A stretch of DNA of 7,480 bases, from the IMG/VR virus record IMGVR_UViG_2690316225_000012, one strand, 5' to 3'. Under the pieces are notes generated by a model that did no database searches, was not told the DNA's origin, and saw only the letters and a list, made by a program, of their open reading frames with translations. This document shows positions 1-7,480 of the stretch, one piece after another (positions within the stretch are counted from its first letter, which is position 1; each line of letters starts with the position of its first letter). Origin of the DNA: a virus (taxonomy: Duplodnaviria > Heunggongvirae > Uroviricota > Caudoviricetes). Position numbers and translations under genes: made by a program.

Positions 1-1
1 G

Positions 2-109
2 AATTACGAGAAGCGCCATACCAAACAGGGGATACAGACCAACCTGACGCTGAAAGAGGAAAGCTACGGCGACTGGCTGCCAAAATGTGACGACCCTGCG
101 ACAGCCTGA
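2..109 (+). CDS. 3' end of an unidentified gene (last 35 codons; start lies outside the window)
   Basis: Frame 2 is open from the window edge to TGA at 107-109 (...NYEKRHTKQGIQTNLTLKEESYGDWLPKCDDPATA*); the other two + frames contain stops. A terminator hairpin follows immediately. Product not recognised. Confidence 0.4.
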   Translation, partial: NYEKRHTKQGIQTNLTLKEESYGDWLPKCDDPATA

Positions 110-115
110 CCCACC

Positions 116-140
116 TGACCGGCATCTGCCGGTCTTTTTT
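116..140 (+). terminator. Rho-independent terminator
   Basis: Stem GACCGGC (116-122), loop ATCT, stem GCCGGTC (127-133), then T7 (134-140), 7 nt after the stop codon of the upstream partial ORF. Confidence 0.7.
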
Positions 141-470
141 TATCCCTGAATTCCCCGAAGGTGAACAATCCACTGTTCACCCTTCACCGTACATTCACCC
201 GTTATCACACTGAAATTTAAAGAGAAAAATGAAAGGTGAACAGTGTGAACAATCAAATCAAAAAAAAACTTTTTTCTCCCTGTGTGATTTCAGTTCGGGG
301 GATTAATCACCGGTATGAGTCACACCGGCAGAATGCCGGAGGTGAAGAATCGAATGTTCACCCTTCACCCATTATTCACCACCTATCACTCTGAAATAAA
401 AGGAGAAAATCAAAGGGTGAACAGTGTGAACAGTTCTTTCGAAAAAAAATTTTTTTCCTGTACGATATAG
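116..470. repeat. Two direct repeat units, about 180-bp period, roughly 80% identical by eye (approx. 116-288 and 325-468), each with internal palindromes and A/T tracts
   Basis: Unit A: GTGAACA(161-167)...TGTTCAC(174-180), TTCACC at 183-188 and 195-200, GGTGAACAGTGTGAACA (235-251), A-tract then T-tract (260-275). Unit B has the same order at +181: CCCTTCACCC (361-370), GGTGAACAGTGTGAACA (416-432), A8T7 (442-456). Each unit is preceded by a CCGGCA-N-TGCCGG hairpin (118-131; 325-339). No ORF in the track covers this region. Confidence 0.7.
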
Positions 471-743
471 CATCAATCCAAGTAAAAATGCGCTTTCATT
501 TCACATTAACTTACAGCCATTGGTATACGATTAGGTATACGCACAAAAACTGAATTAAACAAAATCGTTAAAAATCAAAGCAATATAATATTTATTCAAA
601 CTCCGCCAGCCCCCAATCATGATTGGACGGTGTAAGGACAACACCAACAAAAACAGGAAGTTAGCAGTCTCAGCAGGACACCGACCAGACGGTGAGGAGA
701 CAAAAAAGGATACGCAAAGGAGCCGCGGCTCTCAAGTGTGAAA

Positions 744-769
744 GAAGCCCGCAAATTGCGGGCTTTTTT
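744..769 (+). terminator. Rho-independent terminator
   Basis: GC-rich stem GCCCGC (747-752) / GCGGGC (758-763), extendable by A-T pairs, loop AAATT, followed by T6 (764-769). No ORF upstream, so it may end a non-coding transcript or insulate orf343. Confidence 0.8.
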
Positions 770-824
770 ATTGATCAGTCAACAATAAACAGTAACCGAA
801 TGAGAATTTAATAAGGATATTCAT

Positions 825-1856
825 ATGGAAGCTACTGTGGATTCGATTGATTTTCTGATCCGTAGTGAAGATGATTTTCTAAACTTTCTGGAAGAAATGA
901 AAGCCCGAGAGGGGCTTGATTCTAAAGAGTTTATTTTCCCTAACGTAAAGTTTGCAGGCTGGCCATCCTTAGACATAAATGTAAAAGGAGAGCGGTATCA
1001 TTCATCAATTACATCAGCAATGTTGTTTGGTATGTCAATGCTCAACGAGGAGATACAGCGGGCGTTTGCAACCATACGATACGGATCGCAGAATCTTCAA
1101 CGCTTGACTAATGAAGACAAGCAACGACTTGATATAAATTTTAAAATTAGCGAAGGTTCTAGTGATGCGGAAGGCACCACTGACAAGATCATCAACGCAG
1201 TAACTGATTTTTTGCGAGATACTATGTCTGGACTGAACGGCTGGCAGAAAATGCTTGTTATAATCACAATGGTTGGCGCGGCCAGCACATGTGGTTATCA
1301 CTACATTTCAGAAAATGCCGTAACAGAAAGACATGCAACTGATCGGCAGGTTGAAATTGCAAAAACCACATCCGATGGCATAAACAAAGCCATAGAAGCA
1401 ACATTAGATTATAAAATCTATGGGAAATCAGCGATTAGCGATAAAGTTACTAGTCACGGACAAGCAGGTAAAAGTGCTTTAGTGAAGCAATTAGCTGCTG
1501 ATCCTACTGTCGAAACCGTGACTTTAGGAAATGAGAAACTAACACGACAAGACCTAAATACCTACAACAGCCGACAATCTGTAGATAGAGAACGTAAAGA
1601 ACGAACTGATATATTTTCCATCAAAGGTGTAACCAGAACAGGGCCAACAAATCAGGATATTAATATTAACGTTGTTAGGGTCTCTAATGACGAATGCTTC
1701 ACAATCAAAGCTTCAGCTGATGTTATCACCCAAGATGAGTTGACAGCTATTGTTGACGCTTTGTCAAACAACTCTCATATTAAAATCAGTTACTTAGAGG
1801 TAATTGAAAAGGGTGCTGTTTCTATAGGTCAGTTCAACACTATTGTTTCAGAATAA
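825..1856 (+). CDS. Hypothetical protein, 343 aa, with one central hydrophobic (likely transmembrane) segment; AT-rich cargo gene of unknown function
   Basis: Long ORF with ATG at 825 and an AAGGA ribosome-binding site at 813-817 (7-nt spacing). Hydrophobic stretch WQKMLVIITMVGAASTCGYHYI. Visibly more AT-rich than the tail genes. No motif I can assign to a known family. Confidence 0.8.
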   Translation: MEATVDSIDFLIRSEDDFLNFLEEMKAREGLDSKEFIFPNVKFAGWPSLDINVKGERYHSSITSAMLFGMSMLNEEIQRAFATIRYGSQNLQRLTNEDKQRLDINFKISEGSSDAEGTTDKIINAVTDFLRDTMSGLNGWQKMLVIITMVGAASTCGYHYISENAVTERHATDRQVEIAKTTSDGINKAIEATLDYKIYGKSAISDKVTSHGQAGKSALVKQLAADPTVETVTLGNEKLTRQDLNTYNSRQSVDRERKERTDIFSIKGVTRTGPTNQDININVVRVSNDECFTIKASADVITQDELTAIVDALSNNSHIKISYLEVIEKGAVSIGQFNTIVSE

Positions 1857-1907
1857 TCACTTAACCCCATTTATGTCGGTTGAGGTTATAAGTCACGGAG
1901 ACCAGAT

Positions 1908-2252
1908 ATGTCCTTAAAGTATGCACATGAAAAATTTCATACTGCAGTACTTACTCTTGCGGGCCATGGAAGTATTCAAGAACGCTTGATTAATTCGTAT
2001 GTTTTTAGCCTTGGGCATCTTAAAACAGCCGATGATATTCCAAATGCCTTACAAAGCAGGTTCGATGAATTATGTAAGGAACTGACTAAGTTTGATGCCA
2101 CTGGCGATGAGGGGCGAGTTCAAGCAACAGTATCAAAACTTAACGATTTCGAGATCAATAAACTGATCGAAGATATTGTCAGTCTTAACGATGATATTTG
2201 CATGAAATTGGCTCTGACGGATGAGACTTACCAAGACATACACCAAAGTTAA
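1908..2252 (+). CDS. Hypothetical acidic protein, 114 aa; its last 27 codons lie inside the left inverted repeat
   Basis: ATG at 1908 with GGAG at 1897-1900 (7-nt spacing), 51 bp after orf343, same strand and AT-rich composition. Stop at 2250-2252, followed by a hairpin at 2280-2302. Confidence 0.75.
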   Translation: MSLKYAHEKFHTAVLTLAGHGSIQERLINSYVFSLGHLKTADDIPNALQSRFDELCKELTKFDATGDEGRVQATVSKLNDFEINKLIEDIVSLNDDICMKLALTDETYQDIHQS

Positions 2253-2279
2253 TTGATTAAATTCAAAAAGTTAACGTTC

Positions 2280-2302
2280 AACCAGCCAGTTTTTGGCTGG
2301 TT
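2280..2302 (+). terminator. Hairpin terminator downstream of orf114 (convergent with orf70)
   Basis: AACCAGCC (2280-2287), loop AGTTTTT, GGCTGGTT (2295-2302), followed by TATTGTCTT. Sits between the convergent orf114 and orf70. Confidence 0.55.
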
Positions 2303-2336
2303 TATTGTCTTATAATATTCTTGCTCGAATGATGCA

Positions 2337-2549
2337 CTATTTATGATGTAATCCGGACATCAGTTCATGGACAAGATTATCTCTTTCATTGTGTTGCAAC
2401 CGTAAATGCATAGCAAAAAGGTGAGCACTATCCTCATTCCTCTTCAAGCCATGCTGTTCAAGATACCCGAAAAAACGGCTTCTCTTATCCGCTATTTCCT
2501 GAGTCTGACGTGCAACATTTACCAAATTTTCTAGCGTTTTTCTTGGCAT
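2337..2549 (-). CDS. Hypothetical small basic protein, 70 aa, immediately downstream of pin (copy 1)
   Basis: Identical to ORF 6135-6347; the strong AGGAGG ribosome-binding site read from the right copy (6122-6127, 7 nt before the ATG) is present here by symmetry. Product not recognised. Confidence 0.6.
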   Translation of the reverse strand: MPRKTLENLVNVARQTQEIADKRSRFFGYLEQHGLKRNEDSAHLFAMHLRLQHNERDNLVHELMSGLHHK

Positions 2550-2747
2550 ACTATTTCCTCCTGAAATTGTTGTAATTCACTAGGATATTCATTTTAATTT
2601 GTATCATTTAGTACCAAAACCGCTATCAATTAACAAAGCCATCGTTGTGGTTTACCTTGCAGCCGTTTTTTGTCATTGACTCTATGTGAAAATAATGAAT
2701 CATCATGAGATTGGCTCACACGTTCTTGAATTCGACGAGCTGTGTCT

Positions 2748-3302
2748 TTATTTATCTCCTGCCGGAAACCTCTGATACAAAGTCGATACGCCAACATCAT
2801 AGATAATCGCAACTTTCTGGCGCGGAACTCCTGATGCAATTAATCGTCCGGCTTGTGCCCATTGTTCTGGTGTAAGTTTGGGACGACGTCCACCAATTCG
2901 TCCCTGTGCGCGAGCAGCTTCCAGTCCAGCTTTTGTTCGTTCAACAATCAGTTCTCGTTCCATTTCAGCCAGGGCCCCCATCACATGAAAGAAAAAGCGC
3001 CCCATTGGGGTACTGGTATCAATTGAATCCGTCAGACTACGAAAGTTGATGCCTCGTTCGCGCAACTCCTCCACCAGCACGACAAGATGCCGCATACTGC
3101 GCCCCAGTCGGTCCAGTTTCCAGACCACCAGCGTATCGCCTGCCGATAATGTCCTGAGCAGTTTTTTCAGTCCCGGCCTTTCGGACTTTGTACCGCTTAT
3201 CTTGTCTTCAAAAATCAGCTCGCATCCTGCACAGTTCAGCGCATTACGTTGTAGATCTGTGTTCTGGTCATTTGTTGACACACGTACATAGCCAATAAGC
3301 AT
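2748..3302 (-). CDS. pin: Serine DNA invertase, Hin/Gin/Cin/Pin family (copy 1), 184 aa
   Basis: Translation MLIGYVRVSTNDQ... has the N-terminal catalytic Ser10 motif of small serine recombinases and a C-terminal helix-turn-helix region (GVPRQKVAIIYDVGVSTLYQRF). Preferred start is the internal ATG at 3300-3302, which has a GGAG site 7 nt upstream, not the ORF-track start at 3338. I recognise it as e14 Pin-like. Confidence 0.9.
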   Translation of the reverse strand: MLIGYVRVSTNDQNTDLQRNALNCAGCELIFEDKISGTKSERPGLKKLLRTLSAGDTLVVWKLDRLGRSMRHLVVLVEELRERGINFRSLTDSIDTSTPMGRFFFHVMGALAEMERELIVERTKAGLEAARAQGRIGGRRPKLTPEQWAQAGRLIASGVPRQKVAIIYDVGVSTLYQRFPAGDK

Positions 3303-3356
3303 GGTAGATCTCCCTGACAAAAGCAGGAATGATGCCATTTGCTCGTTATTTCTGCA

Positions 3357-3382
3357 TTTTCATAAACGTTGGTTTGGGAGAA
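3357..3382. other. 26-bp invertase crossover site 1 (pix/gix/hix-like)
   Basis: TTTTCATAAACG-TT-GGTTTGGGAGAA: two imperfectly palindromic 12-bp half-sites around a 2-bp AA/TT core, matching the architecture of hixL/gixL/cix sites. Located between pin and variable cassette A, in frame for GLGE. Confidence 0.75.
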
Positions 3383-3383
3383 G

Positions 3384-3823
3384 CGGCAAAACGAAATGTG
3401 GGCAACGGGGAAAACCAAATCCCTGATATGTCTTTCTGGACGGTTACTGGTGGCAATGGAAATTTTGTGATTCGTCAACCTGACGGGCTAATCATTCAGA
3501 TGGTTACTGTAAGTATAAGCGGTCCAGTGGCGATGAATGGAATGACTGATAATGCTTATGCCATTACAGGTTCTAATAAGTCTTATATTGCCACAGCCAC
3601 ATTGCCCTTTGTATTTCCTAATAAGGTGCTGGGCGTTATCCCTCTGGTATCAACAACAGCTTATGGTGGTGTATCCAGTAATATTACAGGTTCATACGCG
3701 ACGGCGGTTTGTTCTTTTGCCGCTGTCAGGGGGAATAATACGATTGTGTTCAAAGTCGACAAACCACTGAATGCAGCCTTTCCTTCAGATACCAGCGTCT
3801 CAGCGTTAATCATTGGACGGTAA
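3384..3823 (+). CDS. Side tail-fibre C-terminal variable cassette A (no start codon of its own; in frame with the GLGE codons of site 1)
   Basis: ORF track 3329-3823; the first 18 residues (MMPFARYFCIFINVGLGE) are read from pin-upstream and crossover-site sequence shared with cassette B, so the listed start is not real. Sequence diverges from cassette B exactly after GLGE. Confidence 0.75.
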
Positions 3824-3825
3824 GA

Positions 3826-4269
3826 ATGAACTCAGTATTCTTTTCACCCGCAAGTAAAAGTTTTTATCTGCAAGAATTGTTTCCAGAATATGAGGATGCG
3901 GGAACGCTTCCTGATGATGTTATTGAAATTACCAGAGAAACATATGAGCAATTTCTTGGGCTGCATCCAGAAGGGAAAGAAATTGGCGCTGACAGTTCAG
4001 GACGGCCAATATGGATTAATTCCCCGCCGCCTTCAAAAGAGGATGAGATGCTGGCGGCTGAAATGAAAAAGATATCTTTGGTTTCAGAAGTCAATACCTA
4101 CATCAATACCCATCAGTGGCCTGGCAAAGCTGCTATTGGTCGTCTGAAAGGTTACGAGCTGGAACAATATAATTTATGGCTGGATTATCTGGACGCACTG
4201 GAACTGGTTGATACCTCCAGTGCTCCAGATATTGAATGGCCTACGCCTCCGGTAGTTCAGGCCAGATGA
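3826..4269 (+). CDS. Tail fibre assembly protein (Tfa), paired with cassette A
   Basis: 147 aa ending ...YLDALELVDTSSAPDIEWPTPP, the conserved Tfa C-terminal motif. ATG lies 2 nt after the cassette A stop. Confidence 0.85.
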   Translation: MNSVFFSPASKSFYLQELFPEYEDAGTLPDDVIEITRETYEQFLGLHPEGKEIGADSSGRPIWINSPPPSKEDEMLAAEMKKISLVSEVNTYINTHQWPGKAAIGRLKGYELEQYNLWLDYLDALELVDTSSAPDIEWPTPPVVQAR

Positions 4270-4846
4270 CATCCGGCGCGGTGCTGGTATCTGTTGCAGT
4301 CACCGCGTCAATGTAATCCAGCACAGCGTTAAGCCGGGTTGTTTCTGCCTGCGTCAGCTTCCGCCCGGCCTGCAATTTCAGCTGAATCAGACTAATGGAA
4401 GCCATAGCAGCATCAATCAGTGACTGGCGCCGTACTTCTGCCGCGTCTACTGCGGCGTTATGCTGTGCCTCAGTATCGGTCACCCATTTCTCACCATCCC
4501 ATTTATCGTATGACGTTAACGGGGCGATAGTGGTTGTATTTTCAGGGTAATCACCCGGAACTGTGATTTCTTTTGATTCTCCTGTTTCGGTGCTATAGAC
4601 GATTTCACCGCGATGGTCTGGCACATATTCCCATGAGTTAAAATCTGCAGAACGGCAAATTGCATAACCAGCTTTATATGAGCCAGGAGCATCTAAACAG
4701 GAACATGCCGGGATACCAACACCCACAGCAAGATATTCAGTTGATGTGGAAATATATTCCCGTGTTTCACCATCATAATTATAAACGGTAATGTCTCCGG
4801 CCTTTGTGGCGATGAGTTCATTATTTAATACAGCTTTACTTATCAT
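4241..4846 (-). CDS. Tail fibre assembly protein (Tfa), paired with cassette B
   Basis: 201 aa ending ...LDYIDAVTATDTSTAPDVIWPELPEA (Tfa C-terminal motif). Start overlaps the cassette B stop as ATGA (4843-4846); its 3' end overlaps the other tfa by 29 bp. Confidence 0.85.
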   Translation of the reverse strand: MISKAVLNNELIATKAGDITVYNYDGETREYISTSTEYLAVGVGIPACSCLDAPGSYKAGYAICRSADFNSWEYVPDHRGEIVYSTETGESKEITVPGDYPENTTTIAPLTSYDKWDGEKWVTDTEAQHNAAVDAAEVRRQSLIDAAMASISLIQLKLQAGRKLTQAETTRLNAVLDYIDAVTATDTSTAPDVIWPELPEA

Positions 4847-5300
4847 GCAGCCCTCACAATATAATTAAAGGCGATGTTACGGGAGCGGGTTTCAGATGCT
4901 GTGCGAACTGAGCGAGATGCGTCGAATGTCCAGTTATAAGCGCCATAACCCTCAATAATTTCGGCTTCCTTTAGACCTGTAGATAATACTTGCCCATGTT
5001 GACTAAATGGCCCTGAACTAAGTACGTCTCTAAAAAGCTGGGTACGCCCAAAAGAACCAACAATATTCTGAATTGCATCATTCTGTGCAGATAATAAGTT
5101 ACGACCAGAGTCAATCCCGCGCCCATCATCCCAGCCACGAATAAATTCACCGCGTAAATCTGGTAATTTTAATGTTGGGTAAGCCTTTGCCAGATTTGGG
5201 TACTTTTCAGAAGAAAATACTGCTCCGTTACATTTTAGCCACCCCGTTGGCGGAGTGGCGGAAGGCCACGGAACAGGCACACCAACGGGTAATGCCGAAC
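4843..5300 (-). CDS. Side tail-fibre C-terminal variable cassette B (no start codon of its own; in frame with the GLGE codons of site 2)
   Basis: ORF track 4843-5355. After GLGE: GSALPVGVPVPWPSATPPTGWLKCNGAVFSSEKYPNLAKAYPTLKLPDLRGEFIRGWDDGRG...RNIAFNYIVRAA, which I recognise as a Mu S / e14 StfE-type fibre C-terminus. Confidence 0.8.
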
Positions 5301-5301
5301 C

Positions 5302-5327
5302 TTCTCCCAAACCAACGTTTATGAAAA
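5302..5327. other. 26-bp invertase crossover site 2 (inverted copy of site 1)
   Basis: TTCTCCCAAACC-AA-CGTTTATGAAAA; exact reverse complement of site 1; encodes FINVGLGE on the minus strand at the start of cassette B. Confidence 0.75.
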
Positions 5328-5381
5328 TGCAGAAATAACGAGCAAATGGCATCATTCCTGCTTTTGTCAGGGAGATCTACC

Positions 5382-5936
5382 ATGCTTATTGGCTATGTAC
5401 GTGTGTCAACAAATGACCAGAACACAGATCTACAACGTAATGCGCTGAACTGTGCAGGATGCGAGCTGATTTTTGAAGACAAGATAAGCGGTACAAAGTC
5501 CGAAAGGCCGGGACTGAAAAAACTGCTCAGGACATTATCGGCAGGCGATACGCTGGTGGTCTGGAAACTGGACCGACTGGGGCGCAGTATGCGGCATCTT
5601 GTCGTGCTGGTGGAGGAGTTGCGCGAACGAGGCATCAACTTTCGTAGTCTGACGGATTCAATTGATACCAGTACCCCAATGGGGCGCTTTTTCTTTCATG
5701 TGATGGGGGCCCTGGCTGAAATGGAACGAGAACTGATTGTTGAACGAACAAAAGCTGGACTGGAAGCTGCTCGCGCACAGGGACGAATTGGTGGACGTCG
5801 TCCCAAACTTACACCAGAACAATGGGCACAAGCCGGACGATTAATTGCATCAGGAGTTCCGCGCCAGAAAGTTGCGATTATCTATGATGTTGGCGTATCG
5901 ACTTTGTATCAGAGGTTTCCGGCAGGAGATAAATAA
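5382..5936 (+). CDS. pin: Serine DNA invertase, Hin/Gin/Cin/Pin family (copy 2), 184 aa
   Basis: Identical translation to copy 1; GGAG at 5371-5374, ATG at 5382. The ORF-track start at 5346 adds 12 codons with no ribosome-binding site and is not preferred. Confidence 0.9.
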   Translation: MLIGYVRVSTNDQNTDLQRNALNCAGCELIFEDKISGTKSERPGLKKLLRTLSAGDTLVVWKLDRLGRSMRHLVVLVEELRERGINFRSLTDSIDTSTPMGRFFFHVMGALAEMERELIVERTKAGLEAARAQGRIGGRRPKLTPEQWAQAGRLIASGVPRQKVAIIYDVGVSTLYQRFPAGDK

Positions 5937-6134
5937 AGACACAGCTCGTCGAATTCAAGAACGTGTGAGCCAATCTCATGATGATTCATTATTTTCACAT
6001 AGAGTCAATGACAAAAAACGGCTGCAAGGTAAACCACAACGATGGCTTTGTTAATTGATAGCGGTTTTGGTACTAAATGATACAAATTAAAATGAATATC
6101 CTAGTGAATTACAACAATTTCAGGAGGAAATAGT

Positions 6135-6347
6135 ATGCCAAGAAAAACGCTAGAAAATTTGGTAAATGTTGCACGTCAGACTCAGGAAATAGCGGATAAG
6201 AGAAGCCGTTTTTTCGGGTATCTTGAACAGCATGGCTTGAAGAGGAATGAGGATAGTGCTCACCTTTTTGCTATGCATTTACGGTTGCAACACAATGAAA
6301 GAGATAATCTTGTCCATGAACTGATGTCCGGATTACATCATAAATAG
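6135..6347 (+). CDS. Hypothetical small basic protein, 70 aa, downstream of pin (copy 2)
   Basis: AGGAGG at 6122-6127, ATG at 6135; identical to 2337-2549 (-). Confidence 0.6.
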   Translation: MPRKTLENLVNVARQTQEIADKRSRFFGYLEQHGLKRNEDSAHLFAMHLRLQHNERDNLVHELMSGLHHK

Positions 6348-6381
6348 TGCATCATTCGAGCAAGAATATTATAAGACAATA

Positions 6382-6404
6382 AACCAGCCAAAAACTGGCT
6401 GGTT
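6382..6404 (-). terminator. Hairpin terminator (inverted-repeat copy of 2280-2302), here oriented to end the truncated fibre transcript
   Basis: Reverse complement of the 2280-2302 hairpin; on the minus strand the stem is followed by TATTGTCTT. Confidence 0.5.
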
Positions 6405-6431
6405 GAACGTTAACTTTTTGAATTTAATCAA

Positions 6432-6818
6432 TTAACTTTGGTGTATGTCTTGGTAAGTCTCATCCGTCAGAGCCAATTTCATGCAAATATCATCGTTAAG
6501 ACTGACAATATCTACTTCTCCCAAACCAAGGTTTTCGAGAGCCGTTTTCACCGTGCCATCAGATTTGATATCGCCAAACGGATTCTTGCGGCTTAACAGC
6601 AGCGCACGAAGCGCGGTAAGCAGCTGGTCATGCCGCCCCTTCTCCAGGCTGGCACCGGATGCCTCCACCACGCTGCAGAGTTCTTCCTGCAACATGTCAA
6701 AGTAGTCATCATCCAGATCGGTGGCAGGTGTGCCGGTCTGGGGGTTACCACGGGTAAAACCGTTCTTACCCGCGCCGAACTTATCCTTCTGCGCGGTTTT
6801 CGTGTCTATACGATGCAT
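6432..6818 (-). CDS. Side tail-fibre N-terminal constant domain, fused in this arrangement to a 27-aa tail copied from orf114 (truncated fibre)
   Basis: ATG at 6816-6818 with GGAG 7 nt upstream, 3 nt after the YmfQ-like stop. [21 protein letters not shown]...[10 protein letters not shown] looks like a fibre N-terminal domain and ends in the GLGE crossover-site codons. The ORF then runs into the inverted repeat and ends [27 protein letters not shown], identical to the orf114 C-terminus. Confidence 0.7.
6516..6541. other. 26-bp invertase crossover site 3, inside the fibre constant-domain gene
   Basis: TTCTCCCAAACC-AA-GGTTTTCGAGAG: the left half-site is identical to that of site 2, the right half-site is fibre-specific; encodes LENLGLGE in the fibre frame; 2 nt from the inverted-repeat boundary. 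Confidence 0.7.
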
Positions 6819-6821
6819 GGA

Positions 6822-7479
<658 letters not shown>

Positions 7480-7480
7480 C

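Follow-up and report, generated by a model that had tools for sequence, protein, structure and literature searches.

A second, inverted copy of pin in a decayed module of apparent e14 type: probably a recent structural mutation

The DNA analysed here, a stretch of 7,480 nt that will be called the window, contains an inverted repeat of 1,213 bp (2171–3383 and 5301–6513), detected by a repeat search and found to be 100% complementary by a direct base check, together with a tail fibre gene that is cut off precisely at its constant/variable boundary. The reading that we favour, to which we assign a probability of roughly 75%, is that this arrangement is a recent and sporadic structural mutation in a decayed e14-type module, and not an evolved third state. 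A piece of 1,214 bp, formed by the 3' end of orf114, orf70, pin, the pin-side leader, a crossover site and one orphan base, would have been inserted, as an inverted copy, at the crossover site next to the fibre, very recently and in one genome; as a result, the fibre would stop after its 101-aa constant domain and a 27-aa out-of-context tail, and both variable cassettes would be left behind the pin-side leader. Knowledge of the Pin/P-segment switch dates from the 1980s; what is new is the structural variant with two pin genes and three crossover sites.

A perfect repeat of 1.2 kb cannot be attributed to chance. Each arm comprises the last 82 bp of orf114, orf70, pin, a short leader and a crossover site of 26 bp, and the 1,917 bp between the arms are occupied by two convergent units of a cassette and its assembly gene. 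The left arm (2171–3383) is the native one, according to the repeat search and to the comparison with E. coli 602687, and the right arm (5301–6513), missing in that strain, is the inserted one. The native pin gene (2748–3302, minus strand) encodes a serine DNA invertase of 184 aa that is 98% identical to PinE of K-12, and its duplicate (5382–5936, plus strand) has the same sequence. Likewise, orf70, an open reading frame of 70 codons, is found at 2337–2549 (minus strand) and again, from the ORF list, at 6135–6347 (plus strand). The intact native orf114 (1908–2252, plus strand) contributes its final 82 bp (2171–2252) to the duplicated segment, so that a second pin, a second orf70 and a second orf114 3' end are wedged between cassette B and the constant domain of the fibre; at its outer end (6513), the right arm comes within one base of crossover site 3. 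A hairpin of 23 nt between orf114 and orf70 (2280–2302) resembles a bidirectional terminator, and its arm-borne copy (6382–6404, minus strand) now follows the truncated fibre ORF, whose stop codon precedes it by approx. 30 bp.

Comparison with sister strains defines the event. E. coli 602687 has one pin gene and an intact fibre of 253 aa, in which the constant domain is joined to cassette B. When positions 5301–6514 are removed from the window, the remainder is 100% identical to 602687 from approx. 613 to 7480; therefore, the window differs from this strain by a single insertion of 1,214 bp, i.e., an inverted copy of 1,213 bp plus one base. With the insert removed, all the differences between both sequences lie in the first 18 bases or so from position 595. 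The single-pin remnant is also found in strains PS1Thumoskin9 and CD45, where it is flipped to the constant-A arrangement; its accessory proteins are identical there and the IS3 junction is shared. Given that these flipped loci share the IS3 truncation, ordinary two-site inversion operated in this lineage after the decay of the prophage. The evidence for inversion of the segment is thus the presence of both orientations among the near-identical single-pin loci of sister strains, and not the strain under study.

The duplicated structure is rare. None of the 5,426 complete E. coli genomes contained a place covering at least 80% of the window; the joint between the orf114 tail and the fibre was present in 0 of these 5,426 genomes, and the joint of the tandem isomer, which would have ranked top in the joint search, was missing from them as well. 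The orf114-fibre joint was also missing from the PLSDB plasmids, IMG/VR, the GTDB representative genomes and the JGI metagenome contigs, and the GTDB and JGI collections gave no match either to a second pattern, which includes the tandem isomer. Finally, an exact-protein look-up of the 128-aa chimera returned no record in an index of 153 billion gene positions. Absence from databases means rarity, not recency; that the duplication is recent follows from the zero divergence between the two copies.

Invertase crossover sites span 26 bp and are formed by two imperfect inverted half-sites of 12 bp around a core of 2 bp. A search of the window allowing up to three mismatches detected exactly three sites that match the invertase consensus TTNTCNNAAACCNNGGTTTNNGANAA, with one mismatch each (0.01 expected by chance), and no fourth one, including the vicinity of position 2171. 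Site 1 (3357–3382, plus strand) reads TTTTCATAAACG TT GGTTTGGGAGAA, corresponding to the pin-side half, the core and the cassette-side half. Site 2 (5302–5327, plus strand) reads TTCTCCCAAACC AA CGTTTATGAAAA and is the exact reverse complement of site 1, whereas site 3 (6516–6541, plus strand), which reads TTCTCCCAAACC AA GGTTTTCGAGAG in the order cassette-side half, core and fibre-side half, is complete and identical to the stfP site of e14. Sites 1 and 2 are inverted relative to each other and bracket the 1,917-bp segment; sites 2 and 3 are direct repeats. Gin, Cin and Hin have a Fis-bound recombinational enhancer in cis, located inside the 5' part of the invertase gene; if a Fis enhancer is present here, it would have been duplicated along with the arm.

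The pin product shows the Resolvase (PF00239, 1.5e-51) and HTH_7 (PF02796, 3.6e-13) domains, that is, an N-terminal catalytic domain and a C-terminal HTH; it shares 180 of 184 residues with PinE from K-12, including the GYVRVST serine motif, and the constant domain of the fibre is identical to the N-terminus of StfP in 100 of 101 residues. Within the segment, the StfE2-type leader-cassette A ORF (3329–3823, plus strand; 164 aa, with the cassette starting at 3384) precedes its tail fibre assembly gene (3826–4269, plus strand), and the StfE-type leader-cassette B ORF (4843–5355, minus strand; 170 aa, with a Collar domain and the cassette ending at 5300) precedes the assembly gene tfaE (4241–4846, minus strand). 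The two cassettes are thus oppositely oriented and convergent, each with an assembly gene of the Caudo_TAP family. Cassette A is gp53-like, with a Pfam match to Gp53-like_C that falls just under the curated cutoff (24.2 versus 24.9 bits). As the preliminary description had pointed out, neither variable cassette is on a constant domain and both abut pin copies, A from 3384 by site 1 and B, ending at 5300, by site 2. In the Gin and Cin switches of Mu and P1 the constant N-terminus of the fibre lies outside the segment, the alternative C-termini and the assembly genes lie inside, and the invertase gene is found just outside (PMC12529663). A constant N-terminus joined through a site to a cassette is present in 602687 and PS1Thumoskin9, but not in the window.

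The truncated fibre ORF (6432–6818, minus strand) encodes 128 aa; its translation in the ORF list starts with MHRIDTK and ends with HQS, and it consists of a StfP-type constant domain of 101 aa, a junction V and 26 aa of the orf114 C-terminus. It had been described as the constant domain fused to 27 residues of orf114; the fusion is real, but 26 residues match, and the junction V is a GTA codon that spans the orphan base, at a place where orf114 reads IEDIVS. This base, an A on the plus strand at position 6514, sits at the joint between the copy of the orf114 tail and site 3. The outer joint, i.e., orf114 position 2171, one base and site 3, has the sequence GACAATATCTACTTCTCCC, and on the minus strand it reads ...GGTTTGGGAGAAG-T-AGATATTGTC.... 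That the tail of orf114 is read in frame is an accident with a probability of 1 in 3. The outer joint is illegitimate: it is placed on the outer border of site 3, itself complete, at 13–14 bp from the core, it includes one orphan base and it has no pseudo-site near 2171. A Pin-made joint through a pseudo-site in orf114 was also considered; it was rejected given the completeness of site 3, the distance to the core and the lack of a fourth site at up to three mismatches. The partners of the joint share no k-mer-length sequence; the tetranucleotide GAAG is found at each breakpoint, but shifted by 3 nt relative to the joint. The inner joint, running from cassette B through site 2 into pin, looks like an ordinary product of a Pin crossover. 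In the invertase-less, SfV-like Shigella phages SfV, SfI, SfII and SfIV, homology to the fibre gene stops exactly at the GLGE boundary (6515), which suggests that the constant/variable boundary is a general module junction of this fibre family, beyond the Pin site.

Two routes could have led to this structure. In route (a), an illegitimate tandem duplication of 1,214 bp, involving 2171–3383, would come first, and Pin would then carry out a single normal inversion, with the upstream one of the duplicated sites and the site on the fibre side as partners; this is the reverse of the computed inversion between sites 1 and 3, which yields direct arms at 2171 and 3385. In route (b), a replication fold-back template switch would use the inverted crossover sites as 15–20 bp of homology, after which 1.2 kb would be copied backwards before the return to the original template; inverted duplication by template switching has been described as a general mechanism (PMC4689423, PMC7954356, PMC8604942). 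Both routes reproduce the structure exactly and, as far as we can infer, fit equally well; neither of them fully accounts for the coincidence of a breakpoint placed exactly at the edge of a site.

Among the other explanations, the one that survives best, although we consider it unlikely, is that the second arm is an artefact of assembly or finishing, in which mixed inversion isomers led to the pin-side contig being used twice, the real genome having a single pin and an intact fibre. A structure found nowhere else, with copies that are 100% identical, is what such an error would give; moreover, invertible segments are known to confuse assembly, and the inner joint is expected in a mixed population. 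The outer joint, nevertheless, is difficult to obtain in this way: its partners have no common k-mer-length sequence and offer nothing for a graph mis-join, no inversion among the three real sites produces it, and it is a clean single-base filler with no gap. In addition, the resolution of a perfect inverted repeat of 1.2 kb in one contig suggests spanning reads. A mis-join in a De Bruijn graph was specifically judged unlikely, as the joint partners share no sequence.

The context of the duplication, which we continue to regard as a recent mutation, is a prophage remnant of approx. 5.7 kb in its single-pin form, where IS3 is found in place of everything upstream of ymfQ. This gene, encoding a Mu gp48-like baseplate wedge protein (6822–7394, minus strand), retains phage homology up to position 7385, 7 codons short of its native start, and from there the left end of an IS3-family element (7386–7480, plus strand, with the transposase ATG at 7454) takes the place of the remaining tail operon. 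In SfV, an intact Mu-like phage, a full baseplate operon is located upstream of the gp48-like gene, and the homology of the window ends at 7385. No other virion genes were found at this locus in the sister strains. The IS3 junction that replaces the first 7 codons of ymfQ is common to 602687, PS1Thumoskin9 and CD45.

On the opposite side, positions 1–594 (plus strand) are what the window contains of a P4-like satellite prophage, namely its right end, with the C-terminus of a primase/helicase (1–108), a terminator and two repeats of 122 nt (155–276 and 336–457). These repeats are 79% identical and carry five TGTTCACC octamers, versus 0.3 expected by chance, which we take to resemble the ori/crr iterons of P4. 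This left flank was evaluated as part of the fibre element and rejected, given that it belongs to the neighbouring satellite. It is followed by an attachment remnant similar to the 3' end of ssrA (595–620, plus strand), from which the window matches the region immediately downstream of ssrA in 602687; since in this strain the prophage remnant directly follows ssrA, it seems that integration of the satellite at ssrA displaced the remnant downstream. The remnant carries orf343 (825–1856, plus strand, from the ORF list), a cargo gene of unknown function; neither orf343 nor orf114 nor orf70 showed a match in the Pfam or PADLOC scans. In K-12 e14 the pin-adjacent slot (825–2549) is occupied by mcrA; in strain 1916D18, genes for a methyltransferase, a restriction endonuclease and a GIY-YIG protein are found there. 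This has the appearance of a variable slot for defence cargo, and orf343, orf114 and orf70 may be an uncharacterised defence candidate.

A second alternative concerns the short proteins encoded at both ends of the segment. The spacer between pin and the site (3329–3382 and 5302–5355) encodes, on the strand opposite to pin, a conserved leader of 18 aa, MMPFARYFCIFINVGLGE, that runs through the site into whichever cassette adjoins; its counterpart in K-12 is the start of stfE. In K-12 e14, inversion of the P-segment makes the pin-side chimera StfE2, formed by the leader and a gp53-like cassette, which is reported to block adsorption of T2, and other invertases are reported to act in trans on the segment (PMC12529663). 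It could then be proposed that the duplication was selected for placing both cassettes behind a pin-side leader, fixing short proteins of the StfE/StfE2 type and an e14-like anti-phage effect that is locked on, a proposal that we find improbable. More doubtful still is its fuller version, a selected "both-on" state in which each end of the segment has its own leader, both StfE-type proteins can be encoded in either orientation, adsorption blocking is locked on and the virion fibre has been discarded. In agreement with this idea, the leader-cassette ORFs of 164 and 170 aa are intact and, in silico, inversion between sites 1 and 2 alters neither; furthermore, the leader is almost identical to that of K-12 StfE, and the cassette B ORF with its leader is 59% identical overall to this protein. 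Nevertheless, in a protein comparison cassette A has no meaningful similarity to the C-terminus of StfP, the part that makes StfE2, and its gp53-like match is below the cutoff. The promoter scan of the duplicated arm gave nothing above chance, the sole promoter-like match being approx. 630 bp upstream; the structure has a single occurrence, and stfE is annotated as a pseudogene in K-12, although StfE2, which derives from that start, is reported to be functional (PMC12529663).

The products of recombination were built in silico, taking the 2-bp cores as the points of crossover. As it stands, the window encodes a null fibre of 128 aa, with A (164 aa) and B (170 aa) behind leaders and the pin copies inverted, and all of this is retained after inversion between sites 1 and 2. 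Inversion between sites 1 and 3 would restore a constant-A fibre of 247 aa, leaving B behind the leader (170 aa) and the pin copies in tandem, with the arms at 2171 and 3385 and the tandem joint GGGAGAAGTAGATATTGTC beside pin; this in-frame fusion with direct pin repeats had been anticipated in the preliminary description, and the constant-A fibre gene of PS1Thumoskin9 and CD45 is 100% identical to the computed product. If the inversion between sites 1 and 2 occurs first, the one between sites 1 and 3 would yield a constant-B fibre of 253 aa, with A behind the leader (164 aa) and pin again in tandem. A deletion between sites 2 and 3 also gives a constant-B fibre of 253 aa in frame, with A behind the leader and a single pin, and both the layout and the fibre of this second predicted product are those of 602687; it is the deletion route itself that is questionable. 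For Fis/enhancer-dependent invertases of this family inversion is "the exclusive outcome" (PMC3798978), and efficient deletion was seen with enhancer-independent mutants (PMC4817059). Given that sites 2 and 3 are directly repeated and that the family gives inversion only, this deletion would be disfavoured for Pin. Constant-B would be better reached by two inversions or by RecA-dependent collapse of the tandem form, and homologous recombination, which could reduce the tandem pin copies to the canonical locus, is probably a more plausible way back to it than deletion. The junction strings that had been suggested as markers of these products are both already present beside the pin copies of the window, and they are informative only when paired with constant-domain sequence.

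These computed states were the basis for the earlier suggestion of a working OFF/A/B host-range switch. In its favour, OFF, OFF', constant-A (247 aa) and constant-B (253 aa) interconvert by inversions alone with the frames kept, albeit in silico only, both pin copies are intact, and the P segment has inverted in the sister strains; however, a genuine, selected three-state phase-variation switch of the tail fibre is scarcely credible, the weakest of the explanations considered, for a layout unique to this sequence among the 5,426 complete E. coli genomes and with zero divergence between its copies, in a remnant that has no virion for the fibre, an IS3 in place of the operon upstream of ymfQ and no promoter-like site in the scan of 6300–7480, around the fibre ORF (this last being weak evidence), and whose deletion route is disfavoured and whose ON states hold a tandem repeat of 1.2 kb, expected to be lost by homologous recombination to give an ordinary two-state switch. 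The preliminary description had itself named a prophage that is otherwise defective as evidence against such a switch, and had offered a recently damaged prophage locus as the alternative; the comparative evidence favours the latter.

The significance of this locus is small, being a structural mutation of one genome in a cryptic prophage remnant, and a null fibre is irrelevant as a phage host-range switch where there is no virion. It is, nonetheless, a worked example of how an invertase could stabilise a tandem duplication, unstable as such, by making it inverted, or of how short inverted sites could seed a fold-back duplication; either origin would lead to a system of three sites, one state of which is silent but reversible by the invertase itself. 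If the leader-cassette ORFs are indeed expressed adsorption blockers, the locus would be a natural mutant with both isoforms on, suitable for testing the StfE2 model.

Regarding its formation, the locus resembles the products of quasi-palindrome template switching, TID and ODIRA in that adjacent DNA is copied as its reverse complement, one of the joints falling on a short inverted repeat and the other showing microhomology or filler. It differs in that a simple intrastrand switch would be expected to involve a shorter loop than the 1.9 kb, and a shorter copied tract than the 1.2 kb, seen here, and in that TID and ODIRA generate a triplication, whereas the window shows a duplication.

Regarding its function, the Min system of plasmid p15B and the R64 shufflon have one recombinase, more than two crossover sites and more than two isomers, and the window would be similar to them in having more than two sites under one recombinase. 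However, those systems are conserved and contain several evolved, diverged cassettes, and the shufflon enzyme is a tyrosine recombinase; in contrast, the third site of the window is a duplication copy with zero divergence that brings no new cassette. The Gin/G segment of Mu and the Cin/C segment of P1 share with the window the enzyme family and the logic of the switch, but they belong to functional phages with one invertase gene and two sites, while the window has no virion and its constant domain is cut off by an additional site and an additional copy of the gene.

The closest relative is the P segment of e14, and on sequence grounds the locus is an e14-type inversion module. The half-sites and the core of the crossover sites are identical in both; the repeats of the e14 P segment have been given as CCTTCTCCCAAACCAA and TTGGTTTGGGAGAAGG (PMC12529663), and the half-sites of the window match them. 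The gene order (stfP-tfaP-tfaE-stfE-pinE), the convergent tfa genes that overlap at their 3' ends and the ORF of the pin-side leader are also shared, and e14 is a cryptic remnant too. The differences are that e14 has two sites, whereas the window has three, along with two inverted copies of pin; that its constant domain adjoins a fragment of orf114 and no cassette; that cassette A is another gp53-like variant; that the slot beside pin holds orf70, orf114 and orf343 instead of mcrA; and that the locus lies downstream of ssrA, while e14 is found at icd.
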